In this document: positions 1-20,167 of the stretch, in pieces
Layout of the letters: each line of letters starts with the position of its first letter
Numbering within the stretch: position 1 is the first letter of the stretch
Source: a virus
Taxonomy: Duplodnaviria > Caudoviricetes
Reading direction: 5' to 3' (one strand)
IMG/VR virus record: IMGVR_UViG_3300046063_000091
Span: 1-32,419 of that record
DNA: 32,419 bases
Made by a program: the position numbers and the translations under genes
The notes under the pieces: generated by a model
Seen by the model: the letters and a program-made list of their open reading frames with translations, nothing else
Databases searched by the model: none
What the model was told of the DNA's origin: nothing

Positions 1-3000
1 TCAAGAGGATCCCAGCGCAACGTCGGCGGCCACGCGGCGCGCCTCCTGGGCCTCCCTGCTCTTGAAGAGATCGCCAGCCCGGCGCACGGAAGACGTTCTT
101 TCGTCGGAGGCGCCTTGCTCGGAAGCCGCCTCCTCGTCAGAAGCGGTCTCGTCAGGAGCGTCCGAGAAGGCTCCATTCCGGAGCATCTTTTCTTTCACCT
201 GGTCTCGGGCCTGTTTAAACACGTCTTTTATGGCCTCTACCTGCTCTTCCGTCGGCTCCTGCGGGTCCAGTTGGCCGCGCTCGATCATGCCCTTCACCAC
301 CTTCTTGGCGAGGGTGCCGGCCTCCACCTGGTAGTCGTGATACTCCTGGGCGGTCATCTGGATCTTCTTCCCGTCGCGCACAAAGTGGTCTTTCGGGCGG
401 GTCGGCATCCACGAATCCTCGCCCAGCTTCTGGCGCCAGTTCGACAGCAGGCGGTCGGCGGCCAGCCGCCCGGTGGCGTCGTAGCGGTTGGCGGGGGAGA
501 GCAGGCGGTACACAAAATCCGTTGTCGGCCCAAACCCCTCGTTGCGCTTGGCCTCCTGCCCCCAGGGGTCCACGATGGGCGGAGGCTGGATCTGCGCGAG
601 CGGCACCGCCGAGCGCGCCGTCCGCTCGACGTAGTCGGCGGCGTGCTCCCCGACCGTGGCGTCGTCGGGCAGGAACGAATCCGAATCGCGGTAAAACGGG
701 TCCGCCGCGCGCATCGCCGAGGCAAAGAAGTTGGGGAAGTGTCCGCCCAGGAAGCGCCGCGCCCACTTCGCAGCGTTGCGGCGCGGATTCTCGATGACAT
801 TCGCCAGGTCCAGGACCCCCGCCGCAAGGGTCGATTCGAGCATCACGTCGTAGAGCCGCGACGCCGCCTCGGCATTGGCGCGGGCGAAGGGCTTCCCCCG
901 TCGCCGCGCCTCCGCGTAGTCGCCGGCGTATGCGAGCGGAAAGCTGAACGGGGCGAAGCGGCCGTAATCGTAGCGCGTGTCACCGATGCGGATCGTCGTC
1001 GGCTGGCAGTCGCGGTAGCCCTTCGAGCGGGCGCCCGCGTCGCTCCGGTCAATGGAGCCGCTCAGGTAGGGGCACCCCTCGTCGTCGAGCGTTTCGGCCA
1101 TCGTCTTCAGCCCCAGGCCCACCATCGACGTGACCGCCAGCTGCGCCACATCCTTCGTCACCTCCGCCGAGCGGTAGGGTTTAGCGACGAGCTGCCCGCG
1201 CTGCACCTCGGCGCGAAACAGGCCGTGGCGCGCCACGCGCTGCACCATGTCGAGCGTCTGGAGCGGCGGGATCAGTTTGGCCCCCTGCCGGACGGTGTTC
1301 GAGAGCGTCTTTACGAAGGGCACGAAGCCGTGCAGGAAGTACCCCAAGAGCCGCACGCCCATGCTGTCGTCTTGTGCCAGGCTGTTTTTGCCGCTGCGAA
1401 TCTTTTCCGAGAGCGGGTCGAGCGCCTCCTGAAACGATGCCTCACGCGCCTTTTCGAGGGCTCGTACGCTGGCGAGGCTGCCCATCGAGGCCGTCTGCGC
1501 CTCGATGAACGTCTCCATCTCTTCCCCTTCCAGCCCGTTGTCTTTGGCGAGGCGGTACGCCTGCGCGCCGCGCTCCATCTCAAAGACGATGGTCTTGAAA
1601 AACTGGTCACCGGCGGTGAGCGTGCGCAGGCCCAGCCGGGTCACGCGCCCCTTCGTCCCCCCAATCGCTACCGAGTAGCTCTGCGCCTGGTCGCGCCAGC
1701 CGCCCTCCGTATCGGCCCCCTCCACGCGCTGGTCCAGCACGGGCGCCTCGGTGTCGAACCCCAGCCGCGCGGTCGAGAGCGCCTTTGTGAGCCCCCCCCG
1801 CACCCCGCCCAGGAAATACGGCATCTCCCCCAGCGTCGGCATCCCCTCCTTCGGGCCCAGGATCGCCTCATGCACGCTCCCGGCCGTCATCTCCACCGTG
1901 CGCATGACGCTCTGTTTGAACACGTTGGCTCCCGTCGAGCCGAGGTTGAGCACCTGCGTGGACATCCCCGACAGGATCGCCGCCGTCCAGTACTCCTTCC
2001 ATTTCGAGCCGGCCCCGGCCCGCGCCGCAGTGATGACGCGCACCGCCTGCGCCGCCCGGCTCGGGTTCTCGGCGAAGAGCTCGCCCTGCCCTTCCTCCGC
2101 AAACGCCAGGCCGTTGTTTTTGAGCATGGCGGCGATCTCTTGCGTCTCCTCCGCGTGGGCCGCCTCCGCGCGGGCCACCACCTCTTCGTCCTCGGAGTTC
2201 ATCTTGCCCGCGTTCTGCTTTGAGGGGCTGAAGAGTACCTTCATGAAGTCCTCTCGCGCGCGCTCCGCCGGTGAGAGGTTCTCGTCTTGCGCGGCGGAGA
2301 GCGCCCGCGCCGCCTCGCTCATGCGCTCGCGGTAGCGCTTCGTAATCTGCCCCAGCTCGGCGATGCGCTGGGCGTCGCCGCTGTCGAGCGCCTCGCGCCC
2401 CTCGCGCTCGATGATCTCCTTCGCCATCATCACCTCGACCTTTTCGAGGCCGCCCTCGCCTTCGAGAAGCGCCTGGCGCTCGCCCTCGTAGTCGGCGTCT
2501 AAGCGCCGGCGGGCCTCGGAGCGCCACTCGGCCATGCTCTCCTGCGTGGGCATCCCGGCCTCCTCGCGGAGCTGGTCCATCACGTCCACGGCGCTGCGCA
2601 CCTCGTCGGAGTCGGCCGGGTTGGCGAGTTCGGGGCGGCCCGGCGTGCCCGGCTCCCCACGCGCCGCCGCCTCGCTTTCGGAGCGCAGGCGCTCGGCATA
2701 AAAGTCGTCGAGGAACGCCTGCGGGTCGTCGTAGTCAGAAGGCTTCGGGGTCGCGTCAGCATTCGCCTCCGAAGCATTCGCGTCCGAAGCATTCGCGTCG
2801 GGGTCGGCCTGATTGCCAGCTCCCGATTCTGCCCAATCCCCGCGCCGCTGGAAGCGGGTAGGGCCCGGCTCGTAGGGGGCTTGCTCTTCGCGCGTCTTCA
2901 GGTCGGTGCGTTTCTGAATTTCTTCGTCGCTTAGTCCCAGAGGACGACCCTTCGCCTCGCGTGGCGCAGGAAACATCCGCTGATAAGAACTCCCGTCTGC

Positions 3001-6000
3001 GGTCACGACATCCATCAGAACGCCGTCCGCAATGCCCTCTACCGCTACTTCGTGGCGCACCTGGTCATTCAATAGCTCCCTGGGCACAGACAGGGCCACC
3101 TGGCTGGCCCCGTTCTCCACAGCGAATGTACGCACGGCCTCTGTTAGCGTCTCGGTATCATCCAGTAGGGCCGCCTTCGCTCGCCCCAATCCCCGGACGC
3201 GCCCATCGGCCGCTCGCCCAATTACAATGATGCCCTCTGAGGTCTGCGCCTCTTTGGCAACGCCTGCTATTTCCGCCGGGGTGTTGACCGAGCGCCCGAG
3301 TAGTTTATGCGGAGTGCTGGGGGTGAATAGCTGGTCTTGCGCGGTTTCAGGGTCGATGCCCGCTCGCTCCAGCGCGTCTGGGTCGGTAATGTCCTCCACG
3401 CGCTCGTTGAGCCTCGGTCTGCGCGCGCGCCCCCGCGCGGACTTGTCCTCCTCCAGCACGCGAAACTCGCCGCTGTCGATGATGACGTGCCCCTTGAAGC
3501 GATCCATCAGGCTGCCGACCAGCGCTTGCGTAAAGCGCTGGTCAGCCGCCGATGAGGAGGAAACGTTGCCCGACGGGTGGTTGTGCAGGGCAAACACGCC
3601 GTCCGCCCCGCGCTCCTCCAGCCTGCCTTCGAGCCACGCCAGGCGCTCCTCGGTAGTCTGGCCGGCAGCTTGCGGGAACGCCGCTGACGCGCCAGGCAGC
3701 CGCGACGAAACGTTGTCCGAGCCGAGGATCTCGAAGCCCCCCGTGTCGGGAAGCTCTCGAACATAGATGTACCGGAGCGTCTCAAAACGCGAATCGCGCA
3801 GGACCTGCGCCACGGCGGCCAGGTCCTGCGCACCGGAGATGCGCTTGCCCGTGAGTGAAGCTGCTCCCTCGGAAACTAATTGTTGCCCGATTCTTCTTCC
3901 GAGGAGCTCAATCGGTTCCGCCTCGTCCGTCTGCCGGTCTGGTACGGAACTTCGACGCCCTCGTGATGGCGAAGCACGCTCGGCGCTTTCGGGATCTCCG
4001 AATAGTTCGAGCTGTTCTCGGACGTCTTGGAGCGCTTCTTCGGCGCGACTTCGGCTTCCGCTTTCCGATTCGTTTTGTCGGATGTCATAGCGCTGTGCTG
4101 CTGCTTCGGGGTCAAAACGCACGTCTCCTACGCGCTGAAACCGCGCCCGGTTCTCGATCTCGACGGCCTCCTCGGCGCGCAGGTTGCGCGCCGCCGCCTC
4201 CAGCACCAGCTTGAGGTCCGCGTCGGTCGGCGCGCGCCCCAAAGCCTCCCGCAACTTCGCGGCCTGCTGGCGAAAGAAGTCCAGGATGCGTTGCACAAGC
4301 GAGCGCTCCACGTTCAGGCCGCCCTCGGCCAGGTGCGCCAGGTACTCCTCGGCCAGCTCGATGCGCGTCTCGCGGCTCGCGCCCTCTACGCTGTCCACCC
4401 CCTCCGGCGCGTAGAAGTCCAGCAGGCTCCCCCCTTCCAGGCTGGCGGCCTGCATCCGCTCGGTGCCGATGACACCGGCGAGGCGGTCCATGGCCGCCTC
4501 AAACTGGTCCTGTGAGGCGAAGAACGCGCGCAGGCCCTCATGCCCGGCCACCTCGTGCAGGTACGTCTGGATGGCCTGCTGCTCTACTGTAAGGCCGCTC
4601 GCCTGGGCCGCGCGCCACACCTCCGAGGCGACCATCTGCGCCTCCCCGTCAAAGAAGAAACCCGGCGTGACGAACCCCTCGCGCTGCCCCTCGGCGAAGC
4701 GCCTGCCCGCCTCGCCGGGCACGTCTTCGGGCAGCATGTGGATCTTTGCAGCGGGAAGTCCTGACTGGAGGAGCCGTGACAGGGCGGCCTCTATGCGCTC
4801 GACGACTCTCTCGCCCCGCTCTCGGGTCTGTTCCTGGGTCCCTTCCTTCCCGGCGGGCTGCCGGGGCTGTACATCACCTTTTGCACTCTCACGCCCGCCG
4901 CGACGCTGGAAGGGCGCCTCGGTCGCTTCTCCCTCGGGCCTTTGAGCGTTTGTTTGTCCATCGGGAGCCTCCTGGGAAGATGCTTCCTGGGAAGAGGCTT
5001 TTTGGGGAGCGGGGCGTTGCGCGTCGGCAATCTCATTAGCGAGTTCAGGCGTGAGCGTCTTGCCCGTCACGTTCTGAAACTGATCCTCCAGGGCGCTCAT
5101 GGCCCGCTCCGGGGCAGACTGGAGGCTCGTCGGCCCGCCGGGGTTATTCTCCATCACGTCGAGCAGGTCGCCCACGTCCGTGCCGGTTTCATCGGCAACC
5201 TGGCCGAGGCTCATCGTGTCGGTACGACCGCGCGTCACCCAGTTGCCCAGGCCGCGCTCAACGATCTCGTCGCCGCTCGCGCGCCCTCGCACGGCGTCCC
5301 CCTGCGAGTTGTACGGCGCGTTCTCGCGCAGGGCGCGTAGCAGGGGGTCGTTTTCGGCACGCTGGCCGTGGCGGGCCTGCTGCTGCGCGATGGTATGCGC
5401 CTCGGCCAGTTCGATGGGGTTCTCGCTCGACTGCGCCACCGCCTGCGGGTAGCCGCTCACGCCCACGGCGCGCACCTCCTCTTCCGGGAGACGGGCGCGC
5501 CGCTCGTCGATGGCGGCGCTGTTTTCGGCGAAATACTCCGCCAGCACGCGGTCGTGCTCGCTGGAACGCCGGTCCACCACGCCGCTGCGGTCGGTGCCGT
5601 CGGCCTCCGTCTCGGTGTTGACGACCTCGAGGCGCCCGTCAGGCTGCGGGCGCACCTCGTAGCGGCCGCTCTCGAATGGGTAGGGCGTCAGAGCACGCTT
5701 TTTTAGTTCAGGTTCAGTCCCGGCACGGGGCGGCGCCTCACCAGGTCGGCCACCCACCGCTGCACCATCGCCTGACTGGCCTGGTGCTCCAGAAGCACCG
5801 GCGGCTTCCTCGGCACCCACCCCTTCCACGGTGCCCCCCTGCTGGCCTGGAGCGTTTGGCGTGACGTCAGCGGGAGCCCCCGCAGGGGCGGGAGATACGT
5901 CGGGGGTAGCCGGTCCATCAGGGGGTCTTTCATTTGGGGTTCTTTCATTTGGGGGTCCTTCATCGAGCGCTTGCTCTTCGGGGAAAAGGTCTTGCTCGCT

Positions 6001-8574
6001 TTCGCGGCGCTGACGCTCGGACTGGCGCGCCTGCTCTCGGGTCTCGACCAGGTTCTGCTCGGCCTGGCGCAGGCGCTCGCGGTAAGGTTGTAGTATCTGG
6101 TCGAAGTCTTCCTGCGTCGCAGCACGCTCCCCCATGCCTTCCAGGCTTTGCTGCGCGCTCTGCCCACCAGCGTTCGCTCCCGAAGTGTTCGCTTCGCGGC
6201 CCTGCTCTTCCGTCGCCTCGCCAAAGAGGTCTTCGCTTTGCGGCTCATCCGGCCCTCTGTCCCCCAGCTCGTCGCGCTTGGCGTTGAGCTCCTGCCGGGC
6301 GGCCTCTACCTCCGCCTCCGCCTGTTCGACGGCTTGCCGGGCGGCCTCGGCGCTCGGGTAGGTGCGCCGGCGGCCCGAGCCGACGCCCAGGTCGCCCTGC
6401 GCCTCTTCCGTGGCGTCGGCTTCAGGCGCGCCCGTATCACCATCCTGCCGAGAACTCGACTGCCCCTCGTCGATGGATACATTCGGCTCCACCTGCTCTT
6501 CTTCACTGGCCGGAACGGTGCCGCCTTCAACTGCTGCCTCACCTTCTGCGGCTTCTTCCCGCGACGGTGGCGGGGCCTGCTCTTGCGCTTCGGCAGGGTT
6601 CTGTTCAGCGCGACGCAGACGCTCGCGGCGCTTCTGCACCCTCGCGCGTGCCGCCGGCACTTCATCCGCTGCGGCGCGCGTGTTCTGCGCACTGCTGCCG
6701 GTCAACGGCGGACGTACGGCGCGCTTCTCTTGCTCCCGCCGCGCCATTTCATCAAGGAGGGCATCGGCTTCGGCCTCCGAAGCCGCGGCGGGCAAGCGCT
6801 CGGCCAACTCCTCCTCTGAAAGATCTCGCATCTCGGCCGTCCGCCTGCCTTCGCTTTTCTGCCCGGCGGAAGCGGCCTGCGTCGCCGTGGAAGTCGCCGC
6901 CGACTGCCCGGCTCCGGCGACCGCCTCGATAGCGCCCTCGCCGAAGCGAATGTCCTCTCCCGCGAGCGCCTGCCCGGCTACCTCGCCGCCCGCCTCGCCG
7001 AGCGTTTCCGATGCAAACCCGGCCCCGCTTCGCGACACCTGCGACAGGTTGGTGCCCTCCAGCGCGGGCAACGCCGAAGCGAAGAAGGCCTCCACCGTGC
7101 CCACCGCGCCGCCGCGCTGTTTCGCTCGCCTGCGCACCCGCTCTGCGAGCTGCTGCCCTTGCTCCCCCTTGAGCGCCTGCCCCAACGCCTTCGGGTCGGT
7201 AATGTCCACGCCCTCTTCCATCAGGTACTGCGCGAGCGCGGCCTTTTCCTCTACGCTTGCGCTGCCGACAAACGCGCCTGCCGACGAGCCAGCTTTTGCC
7301 CCCGCTGGGCCAAAAACACTTCCGGCCAGCGCGCCCAGCGACGTCGTCAGGATCGACGGAAGCGATTGCAGCGACGAGGACGTGACGAGATTGTACGCGC
7401 TGCCGGCCCCGCCCTGCTCCAGTTGCGAGAGCGCGCCGGCCACGGCCTCGCCTTGCGTGCTGCCCTCGCTGGTGGCTTCGGCCTGCGCCGCCGCGACACG
7501 TGGGTCGCGTGGAAGCTCACCCATCTGTCGCGTGTAGCGGGCTGCCTCCTTCGCCAGCTTCGCGCGCTCCTCGTCCGTGTACGGCTCGGGCGCAAAGAGG
7601 GGGTTGTTCTTGGCCGCCGGGCTCGTCGCCTTGGGGCGGCCGCGTAGCAGTTTGTCGAGGGCGCGGCCTTGCTGCATCTGCCAGTACGAACGTTTCAGAC
7701 CTGTCGTCCACGTCGTCTTGTCCTCCTGCTCGCCGGGAAAGAAACGAGGGTCGGCGAGCTTTTCGACGGCGCCGGCCGCCTTCGTGCGGCCCTCTTCGAG
7801 ACGCGCGGGTGCTTCCTCGTTGAAGCGCTCCATTTTCGCGCGCAGGTCTTTGACGCGACGGTTGTAGGCCTTGACCGCCTCGGCGTTGCTCTCGTCGAGC
7901 GAGTCGCCAGCGGCCTTGAGCGCGGCGGCTTCCGCTTCGAGCTCCTTGCGACGCGCGGCCACCTCCTCCATCTGCTGCACGCCCGCCTCGCGCTCCTTCT
8001 CGATCTGCTCGACAGCGCGGCCGTATCGTATCGCCTGGCGGCGGTCCTGCGCTGCCCCGCGCGTGGAGGTGGACACCGCGGCGGCGGGATCGGGGCGCGG
8101 CGGTTCTTTGTCGGCCGACTGCTGAGATTGCTGCGCCGGCGGCGGCCCCGTGAGCGCGTCGCGCAACTCTTTTTCGCCACCGGCCGCTTCTTCGAGGCGT
8201 TCTCGCCGCGCGGTCGGGGGGTCGGGGGACTGCTGATCGGCTGTACGGTCGGGCCGCTCGCCCTCTTTGCCGCCCAGAGCCGGCGGTTCTGCGGGCAGCT
8301 CTACGGCGGCCTCCATTCCGTTGCGTACTTCCGCTGCGCCGCCCGAGCCCGAGCCTCTTTGCTCCAACCCAAAACGCCGGCGGGCTTTTCGGATCGGCTC
8401 GTCGCCGGCGTCGTTGCGGAGCGAGCCCTCCTCCAGTCCGAAGCGCTGACGTGCACGCTGGCGGGCTTCATCGCTCGGGGCTTCCTTTCCCTGCGGTTCC
8501 GTGTCCAAACCAAACCGCTCGCGGGCGCGTCGTTGCGCCTCTCCGAGTTTGCCAGCCGTTTCAGGATCGCCCAT
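1..8574 (-). CDS. Large polyvalent protein (probable virion-injected protein): Gly/Ala-rich hydrophobic region, zincin-like metallopeptidase, JAB/RadC domain, LPD38-like C-terminus
   Basis: Start placed at ATG 8574 (MGDPET), 5 nt after the upstream stop; TGA at 1-3; 2857 aa. Motifs: YLHEVAGHEGL (HEVAGH at 4540-4557) with downstream AEEYLA; LHNHPSGN..S.AD..GHVII (HNHPSG at 3568-3585); PFVKT..N and YDYGRFAPF near the C-terminus. Confidence 0.85.
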   Translation of the reverse strand: MGDPETAGKLGEAQRRARERFGLDTEPQGKEAPSDEARQRARQRFGLEEGSLRNDAGDEPIRKARRRFGLEQRGSGSGGAAEVRNGMEAAVELPAEPPALGGKEGERPDRTADQQSPDPPTARRERLEEAAGGEKELRDALTGPPPAQQSQQSADKEPPRPDPAAAVSTSTRGAAQDRRQAIRYGRAVEQIEKEREAGVQQMEEVAARRKELEAEAAALKAAGDSLDESNAEAVKAYNRRVKDLRAKMERFNEEAPARLEEGRTKAAGAVEKLADPRFFPGEQEDKTTWTTGLKRSYWQMQQGRALDKLLRGRPKATSPAAKNNPLFAPEPYTDEERAKLAKEAARYTRQMGELPRDPRVAAAQAEATSEGSTQGEAVAGALSQLEQGGAGSAYNLVTSSSLQSLPSILTTSLGALAGSVFGPAGAKAGSSAGAFVGSASVEEKAALAQYLMEEGVDITDPKALGQALKGEQGQQLAERVRRRAKQRGGAVGTVEAFFASALPALEGTNLSQVSRSGAGFASETLGEAGGEVAGQALAGEDIRFGEGAIEAVAGAGQSAATSTATQAASAGQKSEGRRTAEMRDLSEEELAERLPAAASEAEADALLDEMARREQEKRAVRPPLTGSSAQNTRAAADEVPAARARVQKRRERLRRAEQNPAEAQEQAPPPSREEAAEGEAAVEGGTVPASEEEQVEPNVSIDEGQSSSRQDGDTGAPEADATEEAQGDLGVGSGRRRTYPSAEAARQAVEQAEAEVEAARQELNAKRDELGDRGPDEPQSEDLFGEATEEQGREANTSGANAGGQSAQQSLEGMGERAATQEDFDQILQPYRERLRQAEQNLVETREQARQSERQRRESEQDLFPEEQALDEGPPNERTPNERPPDGPATPDVSPAPAGAPADVTPNAPGQQGGTVEGVGAEEAAGASGAPGQSGDGAAVGGRPGEAPPRAGTEPELKKRALTPYPFESGRYEVRPQPDGRLEVVNTETEADGTDRSGVVDRRSSEHDRVLAEYFAENSAAIDERRARLPEEEVRAVGVSGYPQAVAQSSENPIELAEAHTIAQQQARHGQRAENDPLLRALRENAPYNSQGDAVRGRASGDEIVERGLGNWVTRGRTDTMSLGQVADETGTDVGDLLDVMENNPGGPTSLQSAPERAMSALEDQFQNVTGKTLTPELANEIADAQRPAPQKASSQEASSQEAPDGQTNAQRPEGEATEAPFQRRGGRESAKGDVQPRQPAGKEGTQEQTRERGERVVERIEAALSRLLQSGLPAAKIHMLPEDVPGEAGRRFAEGQREGFVTPGFFFDGEAQMVASEVWRAAQASGLTVEQQAIQTYLHEVAGHEGLRAFFASQDQFEAAMDRLAGVIGTERMQAASLEGGSLLDFYAPEGVDSVEGASRETRIELAEEYLAHLAEGGLNVERSLVQRILDFFRQQAAKLREALGRAPTDADLKLVLEAAARNLRAEEAVEIENRARFQRVGDVRFDPEAAAQRYDIRQNESESGSRSRAEEALQDVREQLELFGDPESAERASPSRGRRSSVPDRQTDEAEPIELLGRRIGQQLVSEGAASLTGKRISGAQDLAAVAQVLRDSRFETLRYIYVRELPDTGGFEILGSDNVSSRLPGASAAFPQAAGQTTEERLAWLEGRLEERGADGVFALHNHPSGNVSSSSAADQRFTQALVGSLMDRFKGHVIIDSGEFRVLEEDKSARGRARRPRLNERVEDITDPDALERAGIDPETAQDQLFTPSTPHKLLGRSVNTPAEIAGVAKEAQTSEGIIVIGRAADGRVRGLGRAKAALLDDTETLTEAVRTFAVENGASQVALSVPRELLNDQVRHEVAVEGIADGVLMDVVTADGSSYQRMFPAPREAKGRPLGLSDEEIQKRTDLKTREEQAPYEPGPTRFQRRGDWAESGAGNQADPDANASDANASEANADATPKPSDYDDPQAFLDDFYAERLRSESEAAARGEPGTPGRPELANPADSDEVRSAVDVMDQLREEAGMPTQESMAEWRSEARRRLDADYEGERQALLEGEGGLEKVEVMMAKEIIEREGREALDSGDAQRIAELGQITKRYRERMSEAARALSAAQDENLSPAERAREDFMKVLFSPSKQNAGKMNSEDEEVVARAEAAHAEETQEIAAMLKNNGLAFAEEGQGELFAENPSRAAQAVRVITAARAGAGSKWKEYWTAAILSGMSTQVLNLGSTGANVFKQSVMRTVEMTAGSVHEAILGPKEGMPTLGEMPYFLGGVRGGLTKALSTARLGFDTEAPVLDQRVEGADTEGGWRDQAQSYSVAIGGTKGRVTRLGLRTLTAGDQFFKTIVFEMERGAQAYRLAKDNGLEGEEMETFIEAQTASMGSLASVRALEKAREASFQEALDPLSEKIRSGKNSLAQDDSMGVRLLGYFLHGFVPFVKTLSNTVRQGAKLIPPLQTLDMVQRVARHGLFRAEVQRGQLVAKPYRSAEVTKDVAQLAVTSMVGLGLKTMAETLDDEGCPYLSGSIDRSDAGARSKGYRDCQPTTIRIGDTRYDYGRFAPFSFPLAYAGDYAEARRRGKPFARANAEAASRLYDVMLESTLAAGVLDLANVIENPRRNAAKWARRFLGGHFPNFFASAMRAADPFYRDSDSFLPDDATVGEHAADYVERTARSAVPLAQIQPPPIVDPWGQEAKRNEGFGPTTDFVYRLLSPANRYDATGRLAADRLLSNWRQKLGEDSWMPTRPKDHFVRDGKKIQMTAQEYHDYQVEAGTLAKKVVKGMIERGQLDPQEPTEEQVEAIKDVFKQARDQVKEKMLRNGAFSDAPDETASDEEAASEQGASDERTSSVRRAGDLFKSREAQEARRVAADVALGSS

Positions 8575-8579
8575 GAGAT

Positions 8580-9749
8580 CTAATACTTGACGCCATATTC
8601 CTGCTCGAATTGCTCTTTTGTGATCTCCCCACTCTGAACGAGGCCACACGCCGCCTTTATCTCTTCTTGCAAAGCCTTCTGCTCTTCGTCACCCCCGCCT
8701 TCCGCAGACGTCGCCTCGTCGAGCATCTTCCGGTACTTGTCGAGCGCCTCGTTTTTGTCGTTGTAATCCTCTGTGGTGAGAGGCACGTCAACCTTCCCGC
8801 CCGTCCCCAGCGCATTCGAGGTTACAGTCTTCGTGCCAGACGCTATCTCTTTCTCCAGCCTCTTGATTTGCGCCTTGATCTCCTCGGGGGTCAGCGCGGT
8901 CGTTTCGTCTCCCTCTTCGCCTCTCCGCTCCTCCGCCAGCGCGTTCGCCGAAGCGGTTTGCGCCTCGTTCTCGCGGGTGCGCGACTTGATCTCCTCGATC
9001 TCCGCCTTCTCCTTCTCCGTCATCGGCAAGTTGCGCTTTTTCTTTTCCTGGAGGAGCTCCAGGCGTTGCTTCTCTTTGAGCGTCTCGATCTTTTGCTCGG
9101 CCTCCTGCTTGTTCGTTTCGCGATCTCTCTGTTCCTTTTTCTCGTCGCGTTTCATCTTACGCCGGTGCTTCTTCCGCGCGTCGGCGTCGTCCTGGCGCTC
9201 CTGAACCTCTTTCGTCTCCTGCTCCCGGTTGTACTTCTTCTGCTCCAGGAGGCGGTCGTAGTAGGCCCCCAGGCGCTTCTGGTAGCCCTGGTCCATCTGC
9301 TGCTTCGCCCCGGAAAAGCCCCGCGTCGCCCCGCTCATCAGCGCGGTCGCCATCGGCGCGTCGGCCAGCGCCCCGATTCCCGAAAGCGCCAGCGACGCGA
9401 GCCCCGCCCACTTAAGCCCCTTCGCGCGGCGCTCGTTGTACTCCGGCTTCGCCCCGGCAAAGCCGCGCATCCGAGGAAGCCCCTCCGGATCGCCCCCTTC
9501 CTCGGGCGGCGAATCCGCTGAGGAAGCCCCCGCCGAGGAAGCCCCCGCCGGCGGCGGAATCGCGCCGGACAGCCCCCCGCCGGCGGAGGCGGCGTCGCCG
9601 GCAGCGCCCTGCCGGCCGGCCGCCCCCGGCGTCTCCTTGCGGCCCGTCACTGCCTTACGGGAGGCGCTCTCTGAAGGGAGCTCTTGGGAAACGAGGTCTC
9701 CCAGCTCGTCGTCATCGCGGAAGCGCTCGGGTACAGGAGGAGTCGGCAT
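8580..9749 (-). CDS. Putative internal virion / ejection protein
   Basis: 389 aa with a disordered N-terminus, a hydrophobic Gly/Ala segment (GLKWAGLASLALSGIGAL) and a long charged coiled coil; directly upstream of the polyvalent protein. Confidence 0.6.
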   Translation of the reverse strand: MPTPPVPERFRDDDELGDLVSQELPSESASRKAVTGRKETPGAAGRQGAAGDAASAGGGLSGAIPPPAGASSAGASSADSPPEEGGDPEGLPRMRGFAGAKPEYNERRAKGLKWAGLASLALSGIGALADAPMATALMSGATRGFSGAKQQMDQGYQKRLGAYYDRLLEQKKYNREQETKEVQERQDDADARKKHRRKMKRDEKKEQRDRETNKQEAEQKIETLKEKQRLELLQEKKKRNLPMTEKEKAEIEEIKSRTRENEAQTASANALAEERRGEEGDETTALTPEEIKAQIKRLEKEIASGTKTVTSNALGTGGKVDVPLTTEDYNDKNEALDKYRKMLDEATSAEGGGDEEQKALQEEIKAACGLVQSGEITKEQFEQEYGVKY

Positions 9750-9790
9750 CGGAAAAACGTGCTGCTCGAAAAGAACCGAAGCGGGAATCC

Positions 9791-10327
9791 CTACGAGGAA
9801 TTGTTTCCACTACTGCCGCCCCCGCCTCCGCCGGCGAAGGCCTGCGTCGCCGCCATCGCCCCCTGCCCCAGGAGACCCATCAGCCGGCCCTTCCGCTTTT
9901 GCTCGCGGGCCTGCTTCCGGTTCCAGATTCCCGTCTTGGTATTGGCTGAGCTCATCGCCTGCTGGAGCGCCGCGCGCTTCTGCTGCTGCCCCTGCTGCAC
10001 GACGTCGAGCATCCCCTGCGCCTGGTTGCGCCCGCGCCGCGCGCTCTGGGCAATGGCGCGCTCCGTCCCGCCGGCGCCCTGCTTGGCGAGGGTCGCCTGA
10101 TCGGTGCGCCGCTGCCGCTCGGTGATCCGGCGCAGCTGCTCCATGGCCGCCTGCGCGCCCGGCTGCTCCAGGGCCCCCTGCTTGGATTGGCTCATCAGCT
10201 GCTGGTGGAGCGCGCGCCGGTCGGCCTGGCCGGGGTCGGTGTCCTCGTCCCCCGAGTCGCTGAGTAGTTCCCTTCCGATGTCGATGGCCGCCGGCAGGGC
10301 GGCGGCCGCGAGCGTAGCCCAGGCCAT
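9791..10327 (-). CDS. Putative small ejection (DNA pilot-type) protein
   Basis: ATG at 10327 gives MAWATLAAAALPAAIDIG (178 aa); Ala/Gln-rich helical body and hydrophobic Gly-rich ends, first of three ejection-type genes. The longer ORF call to 10429 runs through an intergenic-looking leader. Confidence 0.6.
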   Translation of the reverse strand: MAWATLAAAALPAAIDIGRELLSDSGDEDTDPGQADRRALHQQLMSQSKQGALEQPGAQAAMEQLRRITERQRRTDQATLAKQGAGGTERAIAQSARRGRNQAQGMLDVVQQGQQQKRAALQQAMSSANTKTGIWNRKQAREQKRKGRLMGLLGQGAMAATQAFAGGGGGGSSGNNSS

Positions 10328-13026: not shown

Positions 13027-16000
13027 CTATTGAGTGAGCAAGGTAGCGTATGCGGCGTTTTCTGCCTTGGTGAAGTCGAGGTTGGGCTCGCCGGTCACGG
13101 CAAGCGTAAAGGACTGCTCGGCCTGCTTCGACCCGTCGCTCACGACGAGCGTCACGTCGTATTCAGCGAAGGCCACCGTCGGCGCGGTCCCGCTCAGGGT
13201 GGCCGTGCCGTCGCCGTGGTCGGTGAGCGTGAGCCACGCCGGGGCCACGCTGATAGCAAAGGTGATCGCGTCGCCGTCCGGATCGCTCCCCTCTACGGTA
13301 TACGTGTACGATTCCCCGCTGGCCGCGGACGTAACCGGAGAGGAGCCGAAGGCGGGAGCGCGGTTGGTCGCGCCCACGTACAGCGGCGCGCTCACCCCGC
13401 CAGAGGTCGTCCACGAGGGCGCGGCGGGGTCGGTGCTCGTGGTGCCGGGCCGGCGGTGGGGCATGCGCACGTCGTACTCGAAGCCGAAGCGCTCGACGCT
13501 CTGCCCCGGCAGGCCTTCCCCTACGAGCTCGAGCTCGCCCTCCAGGAGCATCCCCGCCGGGAGCGTAAACGCGTCGTGCGGAGCTGTATTCATAGCCCCC
13601 TCCTGCAACAGCAGCTTCCCGCGTGCCGGGTCGTGCATCGAAAGCCGCCACGTGAGGCTGCGCAGCGGGTCGCCCTGGCGAAGCCAAAACTCGCGCAGGC
13701 GCTTCCATGTGCCCTGCGCCGAGAAGTAGAGCCGAGCGGTCTGCATGTACACCCGCTGCGCCTGCTCGGACGCGCCCTCTTCGTAGAGCCGCCCGCCGGC
13801 CCCATCCGAGAGCGGCCCGGTGCCGAGGAGCCGCCCCCGGAAACGCCCCAACGCCCGCCGCTCGCGGTCCAGGATCGTCCACGTCCCGTGCCGGAGCGAG
13901 AACGCGAACGTGAGCGCTCCGGCCCCCACCCACAACTCGCGCCGGCTCTGGTCGACGCTCCGGTAGTAGCCCAGCACGGCCGCAGGCTCGCCGCCGCCTT
14001 TGGAAGCCTGCCCGGCCCCGGCGCCGAGGCTTTCTAAAAAGTCTCCCTCGTGAAGCGGGGCCGATATCGGCTCGCCGGAAAGCTCCGGCGCGAGCTGGTA
14101 GATGCCGTCAACGCTGGCGAAGACCACGCTGCGATCGAGGTTCGTGAACGCCCCGCGCCCCACGCACCCCCGGGGCGCGACCTTGCGCCATCCGCTGAAC
14201 GCGACATCGCCCCCGCCCCCCACCTGGCCGAGGAAGACGCTCTCGCGGCAGAGCGCGTAGACGGGGTACTCGCCGAACTGCCCCTCCGAGGCCGGCAGCG
14301 TGGAGGCGGCAAACCCCACGATGCCGTCGGTGGAGCCGTCACCGATGTAGGCGGCCCGCCGCGCCAAAAGCGCGCGCGGCTGGGCTACGCTCGACACCAG
14401 AAGCCGGTTCGGGTCGTGCTCCTCGTTGGCATTCGCGCCGGCGATCTCTTCGCCTGTTACGTTGGCGCTCGATCCTCCGCCCCCGCCGGCGCCGGAGAAG
14501 AAAACCACGACCGACCGCAAATTGCTGTCCCCGCTTGCCGACGTGTCGCCGTACTTCGGCGACCCCGCTTGGGCGTTGGCGGACAGGTCAAATTCGATGC
14601 GCGCGCCCCCGCCGGCCTGAAGGCGAAACGTTCGCTCGCCTCCGTCGCCGGCGTTTCCGCCGGTCTGGTTTACGCTGGCGGCGCGCGTCTTTTTATCGAT
14701 GAGGGTCCCCTCGTCGTCCAGGACGCGCGCGGTCATCTCCGCCGTTGCCGAAAAGAGATCGCCCGGCTTCGTCGCCGATCCGTGCGCTTCGACGTAGGCG
14801 TCTACGTCGATGACCGCGTCGCCCGCCAGCACCGTCGAAAAGTCGTAGTAGGGAGCTGACGAAACCGGGCCGACGGCGTGCGTCGTGTCATCGGAAGGAT
14901 CGGAGGTGTCTCGGCGGTTGTCCACGGCATAACTGCGGGTTTTTTTGTCGCGCGGCCCGCCGTCGTCGTCGGGCATGTCGTCTATGATCTCCTCGCCGTC
15001 GGAACCGCCCCCCTCGCCCGAGGCAGGATCGCCCGTCGTCAGGTCGTAGGCCCCTTCCAGCCGCGCGTATACGTAGTTGCCGCCCCCCGTAGTAAACGCG
15101 CGCGTCGCTCCCTCCATGACGGCCGCGCCCCACGAGCCCGGCTCGCTTCCGGGCACATAGTCGCTGCTCACATAGATCTCCCACCGCTCGGCGCGCACGT
15201 CGGGATAGTAGAGCAGTCCTCCGACGAACGAGGCGCTCGTTGCGTGCGACGAGTCCAGGGGTACCGCCTCGGAGTAGCGCGCGAACCGGCCGTTGGAGGT
15301 GGCCAGCTCGACCTTCATCCGAATCCAGTAGTCGTTCCCGCCGGCGTCGTCGGTGCCGCCCTCCCAGCCGAGCATCCGGCGCAGCGCGGGTCGGGCGAAG
15401 TCGTAGCCCACGTCGCCCAGCAGGAGACGCTGGTTGTAACTAAAGGCCGCCCCCGCACGAATCGTGTGCTGGAGCAGGCTCTCGTCGCTCAGGGGCTCGC
15501 GCGTCAGGATCGAGGCGGCTCCACGAGGCATCTCCTCCCCCTCAAGCTGGGCCTGCGCGCCGATCTCGGTGTCGGAAATCGTTGCTACGCGGAAGCCCGG
15601 ATTGCCCATCGCGGGACGCTCGGCTCCGTCGCGCGGGTCGCCGTCGGCGTCTCTCAGGAGCGGCGGCTGCGCGAAAACGGCAATCCCGGTCAGGATCGGG
15701 TCCCATTCGCTCGCCAGGGGATACGGGTAGCCGTCGACAGTAAATACCGGCGCGTAGGTGTCGCCGCTCCCGCTCGTGCCGACCTCCGCCCTTATCGGGC
15801 CGCCGGGCGGCCCCAGGGTGCCGTCCTTGAGCGTCCACGCGAAGCGAAACACGTATTCCTCCGGCTCCAGCCCCTCGTCCGGCGACCCGGCGGCCACCTC
15901 GCTCGACACGGCCACGTCCGGCAGCGGGGGCGGCGTGAGCGGGAGGACCGCGTCGTCGCGCACCTCAAGGACCGCTTCGGGCGTGTCGTGCCGGGGCGCC

Positions 16001-16419: not shown

Positions 16420-16495
16420 AGGAGAAGAGGGTTCTTCAGAAAAGCGTTCTTCAGGAGAGGGCCGCCCCTTGGGGAAAGCGGCCGCGCCCTGGGCG

Positions 16496-16723
16496 TCAAT
16501 AGGTAGGCGAGAGCTGCGACGTCGTCTGGCTGCGCGGCTCGTGGTCGTAGTCGCTGATCGCCCCGAAGAAGCGCCCGCGCTTCTGCTCGGCCAGCTCCGC
16601 CTGCCCCACGTCGGCGAGGTACTCGGCCTGCACGTAGTCCACCAACGCGCGCCGCAACTCGGGCGGCATCTGCTGCAGGTAGTCCGTTAAGGACGGGCCG
16701 GGAAGCGGCGCGGGAAGAGCCAT
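16496..16723 (-). CDS. Detached C-terminal helical part of the head-tail adaptor 18862..19362
   Basis: 75 aa; MPPELRRALVDYVQAEYL is the helix that normally follows the LYPVP beta-domain of such adaptors (compare IPEELRDALTWEAAGRVL in the neighbour 19422..20093). Own ATG with AAAGG 7 nt upstream; high GC resumes here. Confidence 0.7.
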   Translation of the reverse strand: MALPAPLPGPSLTDYLQQMPPELRRALVDYVQAEYLADVGQAELAEQKRGRFFGAISDYDHEPRSQTTSQLSPTY

Positions 16724-18915
16724 AGATATACCTTTGCGTTAAATCTTGATACCCACTTCGTAATACAGCTTTTTGAGCTTTCCCGCCCCTATGGTAATAG
16801 AAGTCTCCAGCACATTGCGGGTGATAAGGTTATTATTTGTTTGAGTCGAAACCGTCAACAATAGCGGTGTGAAAGCGATTGCCACTCCACGAGTTAGCAA
16901 CCAACACACCGTCATACCCTTCGGGCATGTAAACGGCAGCAGAGCGGATTCCTTGGTTGCCGTTATACAAATAGCCATTGTGCCAGTAGGACGGTCCCCG
17001 TTTGCGATTTTGCAAGATTAGCCGCAACTCTTCCCGGCGCATTTGCCGAAACGACGAAGGCGACAGGACCCTGCCGGTGCGAAGCGAACGCATGAATGCC
17101 ATCACGTCGCGGGCACTCATAATCCATCCTCCTACTCCCGTAAATGCCATTTTCCCGAAATCATGCCCACCGCTCGGCGTCGAGCCGTGCTCATAGGCCA
17201 GCGCGTGCGAATCGTCAGCCGGGGGCGCTGAATACGCATTTTCGACGCAGCCAGTGAATATCTCCCGCTGCACGAAGTCGTCGTACGCCTCCCCTGTCAC
17301 TTCTTCGATAAGCGCCTCCATAACAGCGAGGGAGCCATTTTTGTAATCGTACTTTGCGCCCACCTCATGCTCGAGCGGCCCGTCCAGATAATCCTGCACT
17401 TCCGTGTCGAACCCGCCGTAAAGGTCTATGTCTGCCGTCAACCCCGAACGCATTTGCAGAAACTGGCGAACGGTAGCCACTTCCGCCCCGGAGGCAATAG
17501 AAGAATAGCGGCTCTCAAGATGTGGCCACACGGCATCATCTAAACTTACCCGCTCCTGTTCAACGAGCCGCATCACTGCCGTAGCCGTGAAGATTTTCCC
17601 AACGCTGGCGACATGGCAGGGGGTGTCCAGCGTAAACGGTAAGTCGCCCTCACCTTCTGCACGTGCCACTCCTCCCGCGTCAGACTGAACAACCGAACCG
17701 TTTTGTTCGATAATCCACGCGTAGCCCGCCGGGTTGTCAATTCCAGCGGCAATGGTAGACGAAAAATCAGTCGTTGCTGCCGTCCGCGTTTGCGAAGAAC
17801 GGCGCAGGAAAACGGTGCCGTGAACGGCGTGGCTGTCGGTGTCTTTGCGAAACACTGGCGGAATGAACTTTGACGCCCCCGGCACAGGAGTAGCCGAGAC
17901 CGTCTTCACCGTCCGTGCGCTGCTGCCGCTTTCGGCCCACACTTGCGATTCGTACAAATACTTCGTCCACCACGAGTTTGGCGTGTCGTCTGGATCGGAA
18001 TGTGCAACGAACGGAAACCCAGCAACAATCCCATCGGTCGACAAACCCGACGCATTTCCAAGAATCACGTCACGAGCATTGCCGGCCTTTTCTTCTGTTT
18101 TACCAACATTCACTTTTTCAACAGGACTGCTGGATTCAACGCCGTCGAATGCGCGTCCAATGCTGGCGAACAGCTGCGTGTTACCCCACGAAAACGTGAG
18201 ACTCTGGCCGTCCGATGAAAGAAAGCCGCCGTAAATACGAACGCCCAAATCGGTGTTGATCGAGTGCTGCTGTGAAGCCAGTTCGGTAAACCCGCTCGGG
18301 GCTGAAACAGCAGGATGGGTCTGTACGCTGAGGAAGACGAGCACATAGTCTCCGGACTGCCACGAGTCGTCGGAAAGCACCGCCTCCGACGCTTCATACC
18401 AATCCAGACCCGCCGTTCGCTCGGTAAGCACGGCATACGGCACCGGGCTGACGGACGCGACCGGACCGCATCCAGAAGGGGTGTACCGAAAGAAGTCCGT
18501 TTTGGTCGTATCGCCATCGCTTACCGAAACTCCGATAACGACGAACGCAAGATCGGCCGGCAGTCCTGTTTCGTCTACGGTGATTTCCGGTACACCTTCC
18601 GTCGTGCCGTCGTTCGACTGGCTCTGCGAAAGTAACCCCTTCAGCCAAACAGGCCGCGCGTCTTCGTCGTTTTCGCCGCGTACTTCATCGCTGCCGTCGG
18701 AGAAAGCCAACAGTTCCACGAACACGTCAAATGCCTCAAGGGTATCTCCGTCCGCATCGGTCACAGCTACATCATCGGATACATCAGTAGGTGAAAACGA
18801 AGCAGATCCGTTGGACGCTTTCGCATTCACCGTACTGTCCTTACGCGAAAAGTCGGTTCGATCAGGCATTTTCGGTGCGAACGTCTGCGAGATTCCAGAC
18901 CGGAGCGTTTTGTGA
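16724..18915. other. Lower-GC inserted cassette within the adaptor gene
   Basis: Visibly more AT-rich than either flank, with fairly sharp edges (approximate); no transposase, terminal repeats or target duplication seen. Confidence 0.75.
16833..18869 (-). CDS. Multidomain protein: Ig-like domain, minor-tail-type beta domain, serine hydrolase (beta-lactamase class C / D-Ala-D-Ala peptidase family)
   Basis: 678 aa; SxxK in VASVGKIFTA (17595-17606), TVRQFLQMRSGL, YDYKN (YxN), GGWIMSARD, YWHNG; N-terminal TDADGD..PVWL..VSDG Ig signature. Confidence 0.85.
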   Translation of the reverse strand: MPDRTDFSRKDSTVNAKASNGSASFSPTDVSDDVAVTDADGDTLEAFDVFVELLAFSDGSDEVRGENDEDARPVWLKGLLSQSQSNDGTTEGVPEITVDETGLPADLAFVVIGVSVSDGDTTKTDFFRYTPSGCGPVASVSPVPYAVLTERTAGLDWYEASEAVLSDDSWQSGDYVLVFLSVQTHPAVSAPSGFTELASQQHSINTDLGVRIYGGFLSSDGQSLTFSWGNTQLFASIGRAFDGVESSSPVEKVNVGKTEEKAGNARDVILGNASGLSTDGIVAGFPFVAHSDPDDTPNSWWTKYLYESQVWAESGSSARTVKTVSATPVPGASKFIPPVFRKDTDSHAVHGTVFLRRSSQTRTAATTDFSSTIAAGIDNPAGYAWIIEQNGSVVQSDAGGVARAEGEGDLPFTLDTPCHVASVGKIFTATAVMRLVEQERVSLDDAVWPHLESRYSSIASGAEVATVRQFLQMRSGLTADIDLYGGFDTEVQDYLDGPLEHEVGAKYDYKNGSLAVMEALIEEVTGEAYDDFVQREIFTGCVENAYSAPPADDSHALAYEHGSTPSGGHDFGKMAFTGVGGWIMSARDVMAFMRSLRTGRVLSPSSFRQMRREELRLILQNRKRGPSYWHNGYLYNGNQGIRSAAVYMPEGYDGVLVANSWSGNRFHTAIVDGFDSNK

Positions 18916-19362
18916 GGGGGTCCCGCCGCCCCCGTATACGCCGTTGAGCTTGTACAGAAGGGTTACCTCGTAGACCCCGTCCGGCACCGGATAGAGCCAG
19001 AGCGCCCCTTCGTGGAGCCCGTAGCAGGTGGGGCGCCCGCTCTTCGCCTCGGGGCTGGCGGCGGCGGCGCGCACATCGGCGCCGGCCTTGTGCTCCAGCT
19101 CGCGATCCGCGATGCTCGCCCTGCGCATCACGTCGAGGGCCGACGTGACCGCGTAGGCGGCCTGCCCCTTCGCCGTCGAGACGGTAGCCCTCCCCTCGAA
19201 GCGATTCGTCTTCTTGGCGATCTCAATCAGGCCGTCCTGGAGGGCGGCCATCAGCGCCGGCTCGTCGGCCTCGGTGGGCGTCAGGCCGGGGTCTTCCAGG
19301 CGCCGCCCCAGGAGGCCGATCTTGCGCTTCACGCGCTCCAGTACGTCACCGGCGGTGTTCAT
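18862..19362 (-). CDS. Head-tail adaptor / tail ring protein, N-terminal part
   Basis: 166 aa; helical N-terminus, T..GQAAY, SGRPTCY, LWLYPVPDGVYEVTLLY typical of podophage adaptor/tail-tubular proteins; lacks the C-terminal helices. Confidence 0.75.
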   Translation of the reverse strand: MNTAGDVLERVKRKIGLLGRRLEDPGLTPTEADEPALMAALQDGLIEIAKKTNRFEGRATVSTAKGQAAYAVTSALDVMRRASIADRELEHKAGADVRAAAASPEAKSGRPTCYGLHEGALWLYPVPDGVYEVTLLYKLNGVYGGGGTPSQNAPVWNLADVRTENA

Positions 19363-19421
19363 GGGACTCGGCCTCTCTGAAAGTCAGCCTCTCTGAAGTT
19401 TAGATTACAGGGGATGCGCCT

Positions 19422-20093
19422 CTACTCTGCCGGGCGGTCCTCGCCCATCAGCCCATAGCGCAGCCCGCTGATCGCCCGCGTGGACGCCTCAAACGCAGCG
19501 CCGGCCCCTTCCTCCTTCGTGCTCTGGAGGACGCGCCCGGCCGCCTCCCACGTCAGCGCGTCGCGCAGCTCCTCGGGGATCTGCTCCGGCGCCGTGTCGG
19601 GCACGTAGGCGAACAGCTCCACCGTCGGCGTTGCGTCCTGCGGGTAGCACTCCACCGCCTGGTTGACGCTGCCGGAGAAGTAGGGCGCAAGGCTGGCAAT
19701 CGGGTGCGCCTCGTCAGCGGAGGTAAACGGGTTGGCTTGAAGGCGGTAGCGGCTCGAATCGAGGGGGACGAACTCATCCACCGCGTGCTTCCACTCCGGC
19801 AGGCGCACCCGCAGGAAGCGAATGAAGTCATCCGGCACCGGAATCACGGTCTTGCGCCCGTCGTTGGTGGGGGCCACGCTCGCGCTCCCGTCGTCGGCGG
19901 CAGGGTAGACGAGCTCGCGCGGCACGCGCCGCAGGATCGAGCGCCCCGCCTCCACGAGCTCCTGGTACGTGCTCTTCCGGTTCACGGGCGTCGTCTGGCC
20001 CTGAGCGGTCACCTGGTCCACGCGGTATTCCACGCGCTCCACGAGCGTTTCCTGGCTGGGGGTGTTGTTGGGGTCGTAGGTAAAAGTGGGCAT
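19422..20093 (-). CDS. Head completion / head-tail adaptor protein
   Basis: ATG 20093 (GTG 20099 alternative); IPVPDDFIRFLRVRLPEW..YRLQ.N and IPEELRDAL; position after the capsid genes. Confidence 0.7.
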   Translation of the reverse strand: MPTFTYDPNNTPSQETLVERVEYRVDQVTAQGQTTPVNRKSTYQELVEAGRSILRRVPRELVYPAADDGSASVAPTNDGRKTVIPVPDDFIRFLRVRLPEWKHAVDEFVPLDSSRYRLQANPFTSADEAHPIASLAPYFSGSVNQAVECYPQDATPTVELFAYVPDTAPEQIPEELRDALTWEAAGRVLQSTKEEGAGAAFEASTRAISGLRYGLMGEDRPAE

Positions 20094-20167
20094 GGGCACC
20101 GTTTGCTAGGGGTGCCATGCGCTGTGCCCGTGCCACTTAAACCTGGGATTGCTCTCCGCCGAGAGGG

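Follow-up and report, generated by a model that had tools for sequence, protein, structure and literature searches.

The 32,419-base virus record IMGVR_UViG_3300046063_000091 (Caudoviricetes), analysed here over its full length and called the window below, comes from an uncultured, podophage-type virus of halite (salt rock). Its head–tail adaptor, a ring protein of the SU10/gp11 type, is encoded by two open reading frames (ORFs) 2.1 kb apart, with a foreign gene, which we call the cargo gene, lying between them. Such a split had been proposed from the letters of the window alone (the original prediction), and it is borne out by homology, structure and relatives, including an intact gene at the same position. 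The locus consists of the following parts:

18862..19362, minus strand: front half of the adaptor (N-piece), 166 amino acids (aa); matches PF24175 (SU10_adaptor) with an expectation value (E) of 3e-9 and covers positions 1-156 of 225 in the profile of intact adaptors
16833..18869, minus strand: cargo gene, 678 aa; its ATG overlaps the N-piece stop codon by 8 nucleotides (nt); GC 0.56
16724..16832, minus strand: AT-rich spacer of 109 nt; GC 0.42; includes the start signal of the C-piece
16496..16723, minus strand: rear half of the adaptor (C-piece), 75 aa; profile positions 158-221 of 225; 47% identical to residues 153-211 of the intact adaptor of locus L003; G+C at third codon positions (GC3) 0.91

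A head–tail adaptor in two pieces

The N-piece is composed of two N-terminal helices and a beta fibre-dock domain of the SU10/gp11 type, followed by a short added tail. It matches the Pfam family PF24175 over positions 2-121 of 194 (38 bits, cut-off 27), and the intact protein P0019 matches positions 2-174 of the same family with 35.6 bits. The C-piece starts with its own ATG, preceded 7 nt upstream by AAGG, and has a new, Pro-rich leader ahead of three bundle helices and the C-terminal arm. Searching both pieces against single-gene adaptors, the check proposed with the original prediction, gave a continuous tiling: on a profile of 225 positions built from 35 intact single-gene proteins (P0019 and 34 representatives from the 45-match search described below), the N-piece occupies positions 1-156 (E 2e-53) and the C-piece positions 158-221 (E 6e-21), and the two together cover the intact profile with almost no gap or overlap. 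The 75-aa ORF was thereby recognised as the missing adaptor C-terminus, as had been supposed. Adaptor sequence was also said to be lost after the beta domain, and the profile match does stop at position 156; the residues that follow GGGGTP are no junk, however, and form a conserved tail with a P-x-W signature, to which we return below.

An intact counterpart was found via the upstream gene. Locus L003 carries a single 218-aa adaptor directly before a homologue of the large tail gene of the window, and the N-piece is 36% identical to its residues 1-161. A search of 1.84 billion representatives returned 45 matches, 43 of them 191-322 aa and two 156-160 aa long, and 37 of the 45 reach the C-terminal helices of the profile, so that the intact form is the norm of the family. 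No adaptor longer than 322 aa, as expected for in-frame inserts, was among the matches of this length-free search with a single query, and no search aimed at such forms was made. Because the adaptor of the window is encoded as two ORFs 2.1 kb apart, it lacks the one continuous chain of an ordinary PF24175 member and is a split variant of it.

The intact adaptor was modelled with a mean predicted local distance difference test (pLDDT) score of 93.4, with helices at residues 4-22 and 31-52, a beta domain at 56-139, a loop at 140-148 and three further helices at 149-159, 162-179 and 183-198. The model matches the adaptors of GP4, SU10 and KHP30 and the neck proteins of Pa223 and crAss001. The cut falls in the loop that connects the beta fibre-dock domain with the three C-terminal helices; this loop varies in length among intact members too. 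Helix bundle, inserted beta dock and C-terminal arm were all found in the intact relative, and the pieces of the window jointly cover them by profile; the gene order fits a ring between portal and nozzle. Both adaptor halves have the codon usage of resident genes: GC3 is 0.87 in the N-piece and 0.91 in the C-piece, compared with 0.61 in the cargo gene and 0.86-0.92 in six flanking resident genes (portal, capsid, the 225-aa gene, tail gene, 181-aa gene and lysozyme).

Neither half contains stops or frameshifts. At positions conserved in at least 60% of intact members, the N-piece keeps 26 of 32 and the C-piece 10 of 15, which is the rate of the intact members themselves (means of 23.9 and 10.8). 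By this comparison the halves are not decaying, in agreement with the earlier impression. Free C-pieces of 57-76 aa were detected in JGI, ENA and Logan data, and five that were compared show 51-96% identity. In stand-alone homologues of 73-76 aa (61-96% identity) the initial Met is followed by a variable, Pro-rich leader; among C-pieces that have a start of their own, identity falls to 51-61% with the core kept, and the ATG is retained although the adjoining codons vary. The nine short N-pieces are 35-95% identical to that of the window. One of them, P0003, is chimeric, its first 49 residues being of the L003/L004 type and the remainder of the window type, which shows that these adaptor genes recombine. 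On a tree of 35 N-terminal regions the split label changes at least twice, since the short form of locus L004 is sister to the intact L003 protein at 100/100; as far as this tree goes, the split either arose twice, was undone by a re-fusion, or travelled with the 3' module through recombination.

Several other candidates were followed up. Among 22 loci, 19 (L008-L026) proved to encode unrelated proteins that share only a short EGLIEIA segment, and P0068, a 464-aa member of the C-piece cluster considered as a fused form, is an unrelated FecR protein. Scans of metagenome contigs and of genome contigs confirmed no relative. A DNA pattern for the C-piece core hit 39 viral loci, with an adaptor on the L003 contig only.

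Cassette turnover at the break and the cargo protein

Seen across its relatives, the gap between the halves is a recurrent exchange site for cassettes and not a one-off insertion, as had been assumed. Relatives with no cassette or a different one, which the original prediction suggested looking for, were found: the gene is intact in L003, and L001 and L004 carry other cassettes at this site, which makes the site both old and swappable. L001 is 95% identical to the window up to position 18881 and then continues with a different gene; in L004 a short N-piece that shares 86% identity with the intact L003 protein precedes two genes, of 261 aa and 165 aa. Nine runs, all halite metagenomes, are listed for the region. 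In one of them, X6, both halves are covered at a summed depth of ~10-22; the 12 bins spanning 16913-18796 have zero depth, and its loose end at 18881 resembles the L001 continuation. This run without the cargo gene nevertheless has depth in the bin 16756-16912, with a variant at 16772. The spacer is more than simple non-coding sequence: it has one frame with 30 open codons ending in a stop, and is probably the leftover 3' end of an earlier, displaced cassette gene.

The junctions themselves are covered unevenly. Contigs of two runs from another study bridge the 5' junction without differences (X3, 18556-19041; X4, 18774-18934), so that the expected continuity holds there, whereas point 16833 is bridged by none of the pieces listed from four runs. 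A loose end of X3 at 16833, examined as another C-piece start, is the next gene of a siphovirus. Among the 20 of 52 direct-repeat families and 25 of 107 inverted pairs listed, none joins both junctions, and a joined N-to-C form is absent from the contigs of four runs, contigs being prone to drop rare forms. No recombinase, endonuclease or transposase was seen in the element; the absence of a transposase had been noted before, and the insert is a gene for an immunoglobulin (Ig)-like domain and a serine hydrolase.

The cargo gene encodes an N-terminal Ig-like beta-sandwich, an unannotated middle and a C-terminal serine hydrolase of the beta-lactamase fold:

18483..18833, minus strand: Ig-like domain, approximately residues 13-129; 31% identical over 105 aa (E 1e-7) to the first cassette gene of L004
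16902..17729, minus strand: serine hydrolase domain, with motifs S422-x-x-K425, Y509-x-N511 and H630-x-G632

Residues 1-140 were modelled as an Ig-like sandwich (pLDDT 76.5), nearly all beta, with residues 1-10 disordered. Its structural neighbours of the Ig fold reach Z scores of only 5.4-6.9; neither this domain nor that of L004 has a match in Pfam or NCBIfam, the ESM Atlas gave only 0.76 for both, BFVD yielded one unnamed match (E 2.5e-4), and comparison of its profile with the He_PIG domain of the window itself was not significant. The hydrolase part matches PF00144 over residues 381-656 (E 1e-36; 127 bits, cut-off 27). The cargo also matches phrog_382, a minor tail protein with lysin activity, and the nearest solved relatives of the hydrolase domain include D-peptidases, DD-carboxypeptidases and esterases; it fails the class C beta-lactamase model NF033085 of NCBIfam (16 bits against a cut-off of 415). 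Judging from these relatives, the substrate may be a cell-wall D-peptide or an ester.

The cargo gene is not confined to the podophage. Along 2059 nt, starting at 18887 and ending exactly at the stop codon, its DNA is 81% identical to that of siphovirus locus L030, and copies occur in both L029 and L030, behind an 803-aa tape-measure-like gene and a 933-aa gene. The product of the latter, for which NCBIfam has no match, is a putative tail-tip protein by its sequence features and position; its end (L030 5450-6001, plus strand) holds a stretch resembling a coiled coil, a Cys-Cys pair and the tail motif in two tandem copies, and a 351-aa gene lies 3' of the cargo gene there. Loci of the L030 type occur in the same kind of sample as the window. 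Since the cargo gene lies in the tail region in phages of two types, its product would seem to be an enzyme that is carried on the virion and acts on the host surface.

The P-x-W tail and proposed assembly of the ring

The tail added to the N-piece deserves separate consideration:

18871..18903, minus strand: tail motif P-V-W-x-L-x-D-V-R-x-E, N-piece residues 154-164; candidate cargo-docking peptide and recombination point

New here, in the sequences compared, is a P-x-W tail that is invariant in the split forms, absent from the intact ones and shared with an unrelated scaffold ahead of the same gene. P154 and W156 are invariant in all nine short N-pieces, and P-x-W occurs in none of the 35 intact linkers. 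Two tandem copies of the motif end the 933-aa siphovirus protein, directly before the cargo gene; in a scan of 76,118 positions in six loci these copies ranked first and second (scores 48 and 32; next 25), and they differ from the copy of the window by synonymous changes at the V, D and R codons. The same peptide thus closes two unrelated scaffold proteins, each encoded ahead of the cargo gene. Relative to the gene before it, the next ATG lies in frame +1 in the window, in frame 0 in L001 and L004 and in frame -1 in the siphovirus, a variation that speaks against a conserved fusion and in favour of contact in trans. The third-ranked likeness (score 25) lies just after an Ig-like domain in L004 (12894-13679, plus strand) and hints that the motif might be a domain-linking strand. 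A donor-strand-completed Ig domain is one without one of its strands, which a partner peptide supplies. The tail motif resembles the first strand of cadherin-like domains, a strand that the cargo domain might conceivably lack.

We propose that the podophage makes its adaptor from two genes, cut behind the beta fibre-dock domain and ahead of the final three helices, and that both halves would be translated, the C-piece inserting its three helices against the two of the N-piece, and the pair assembling as an ordinary ring. In solved adaptors the helix bundle is built from both chain ends and a C-terminal loop grips the portal, according to two reports (PMC13730344, PMC9509320), and for this reason we infer that neither half should work alone. 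Since the prediction has the C-piece completing the helix bundle and contributing the portal-binding arm, translation of both halves and their reassembly in trans are likely. The freed C-terminus of the N-piece, placed at the edge of the fibre-dock domain, could then hold the cassette product, with up to 12 cargo copies per ring by analogy with dodecameric adaptors. That the P-x-W tail in fact docks the cassette product on the neck is a good possibility that falls somewhat short of even; the motif pattern lends real, if indirect, support to the original idea of a freed C-terminus carrying cargo, which we would hold with the same reserve. Cassettes of host-contact genes would swap by recombination at the motif and at the C-piece start, leaving remnants like the 30-codon frame of the spacer. 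A broader view, which we consider rather unlikely, is that of a portable docking code among halite phages, in which a C-terminal P-x-W-x-L-x-D peptide, on a podophage adaptor or a siphovirus tail-tip protein, would complete or bind the Ig-like domain of exchangeable enzymes. Splitting the ring protein would make the graft onto the adaptor possible, the DNA of the peptide would double as the swap point, and the same host-surface enzyme could be displayed on virions of different tail type.

A number of observations weigh against this proposal in one or another of its parts. The stop codon and next gene have been seen for three of the nine short N-pieces (window, L001 and L004), the other six being known as protein only, and both halves stand on one contig only in the window, L001 and L004 ending inside their cassettes. 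P0002 and P0069, whose longest contigs are both 37,422 nt, suggest a second case of the two halves together, with this shared length as the sole link. The record of L004 is classed as a provirus, by which a defective prophage becomes possible for the group. With respect to docking, the siphovirus DNA match begins inside the motif (18887), as would also be expected of a hitch-hiked gene end; the 61 visible residues of the first L001 cassette gene bear no resemblance to the Ig domain, and one tail would thus need to serve different partners; and the cargo Ig domain folds alone in prediction, with no donated strand called for.

Some of these points lead to other explanations. The split adaptor may work in trans with a P-x-W tail that does not bind cargo, the latter docking on the ordinary beta-dock domain, which is plausible without being probable. 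The tail could then pack on the adaptor, pair with the Pro-rich leader of the C-piece to aid reassembly, or be a conserved recombination handle. Tails derived from an insertion aid reassembly in the split NrdA of phage Aeh1 (PMC3045599), an aromatic residue stands ~8-12 positions into the linker of several intact relatives (P0030, P0041, P0044 and P0048), and the motif contains both the end of the L001 match (18881) and the start of the L030 match (18887); on the other hand, the motif also ends a siphovirus tail-tip protein that has neither an adaptor domain nor an adjoining C-piece, in two tandem copies with synonymous differences. It is improbable that the insertion inactivated the adaptor, leaving relics of a defective prophage or a dispensable ring replaced by the 225-aa protein encoded upstream. 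A candidate paralogue does lie upstream, one relative (L004) is a provirus, and crAss001 stacks paralogous rings, whose number varies among crassviruses (PMC10172136). The absence of stops and frameshifts and the conserved positions kept at the rate of intact members do not look like relics, nor do short N-pieces persisting to 35-46% identity, C-pieces persisting to 51-61% with their own ATG, or a C-piece GC3 of 0.91, and no adaptor identity could be established for the 225-aa protein.

Restoration of a continuous adaptor by DNA excision, RNA splicing or ribosomal bypass, or fusion of N-piece and cargo by frameshift or readthrough, appears more improbable still. The UGA of the N-piece is in frame with the next ATG, 12 nt further in L001 (8487-8504) and 15 nt further in L004 (12876-12896), so that readthrough is conceivable in these two but not in the window, where the +1 frame has no stop over ~30 codons ahead of the cargo ATG and would permit a frameshift. 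Against fusion stands the differing frame of the next ATG among the loci, and against restoration stand the lack of a listed repeat joining the junctions, the lack of an N-to-C joint in the assembled runs (with the caveat on rare forms given above) and the C-piece ATG, kept while adjoining codons vary. An assembly chimera of the podophage and a co-occurring siphovirus sharing the cargo gene is scarcely credible: the 81%-identical gene does occur in the same kind of sample and the junction at 16833 is unbridged among the listed pieces, but 19% of bases differ between the cargo of the window and the siphovirus copy, two runs of another study have contigs across the 5' junction, the exact proteins of the window occur on 2-3 contigs of up to 41,332 nt, and short N-pieces and free C-pieces appear in JGI, ENA and Logan assemblies.

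Known systems and neighbouring genes

SU10 gp11 and the podophage adaptors (PF24175; PDB 7Z47, 8JOV, 7WMP, 8ZKK and 26FB; T7 gp11) share with the adaptor of the window a helix bundle formed from both ends, an inserted beta fibre-dock, a C-terminal arm and a gene position between the capsid genes and the large tail gene. They are single gene products, whereas the window has two genes, a foreign gene between them and a front half with a new tail. Split phage genes that complement in trans are known. In Aeromonas phage Aeh1 (PMC3045599), nrdA is likewise fragmented by an inserted gene, mobE, with insertion-derived tails and no splicing; as in fragments of that type, the halves in the window have their own ATGs, are both intact and carry a new tail and a new leader. 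The Aeh1 case concerns an enzyme split by a homing endonuclease, in contrast to a structural ring split by an Ig and serine hydrolase insert that varies and looks virion-associated, with a tail that recurs on an unrelated scaffold. The nozzle of Pseudomonas podophage A1002 is a tail component made of two proteins, one of which offers fibre attachment sites, but there it is the nozzle that is split and the adaptor gp47 is a single chain (PMC13730344). Mycobacteriophage minor tail proteins with a beta-lactamase fold (phrog_382) are likewise tail-region proteins bearing a serine hydrolase domain; the match (24-29%) is limited to the catalytic domain, which in the window comes after an Ig-like domain, within an adaptor gene, and is common to a podophage and a siphovirus. 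In the short-fibre dock loop of the SU10 nozzle a short Trp-bearing scaffold stretch holds an appendage (PMC9509320); that loop is internal, has three Trp and binds a trimer, and the tail in the window is a free C-terminal peptide with one Trp and a candidate binder. A full-text literature search, most subscription journals being outside its scope, found no report of a split head–tail adaptor or of strand-completed cargo on phage tails.

The solved head–tail adaptors considered here are single chains, and the conserved split shows that a break in the chain is tolerated by the ring at one defined loop. Within a core structural gene, this loop can turn into a place where host-contact genes are exchanged. 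The split also accounts for 'truncated' adaptors of 156-166 aa and orphan ORFs of 57-76 aa in databases. If the tail is a docking peptide, it would be a small natural tag moving one enzyme module between podophage necks and siphovirus tail tips.

The minus strand of the window encodes a terminase, a P22-like portal, a SU10-type major capsid protein, tail genes, a lysozyme and one very large ORF. The isolates nearest by portal are three Bacteroides phages (~32% identity); no isolated phage matched the intact adaptor, and the N-piece gave two weak matches. A promoter and terminator scan found nothing on the coding strand. Two neighbouring genes flank the split locus:

19422..20099, minus strand: 225-aa gene upstream of the N-piece; conserved in L001, L003 and L004
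13027..16419, minus strand: large tail gene with a C-terminal He_PIG Ig domain (PF05345); a homologue lies directly 3' of the intact adaptor in L003

The 225-aa protein is possibly a second ring protein; against the adaptor profile a PEEL-type segment alone matches, with an HHalign probability of 0.7%, and the PDB holds no sequence match. Three genes, one of them peptidoglycan-hydrolase-like, separate its homologue from the adaptor in L003 and L004. Just upstream of this homologue, L004 has a 443-aa ORF with tandem internal repeats (8640-9971, plus strand), which is absent at the corresponding place in the window and in L003. The large tail gene, whose He_PIG domain lies at 13027-13390 (minus strand), probably encodes the nozzle, as its position implies. 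It is followed in L003 by a 1027-aa gene without a Pfam match (16440-19523, plus strand), a candidate fibre, and in the window by only a 181-aa gene. At 1-8649 (minus strand) an ORF of at least 2882 aa runs off the window; it contains a weak RadC-like JAB match at residues 1680-1735 and is probably an ejected mega-protein.

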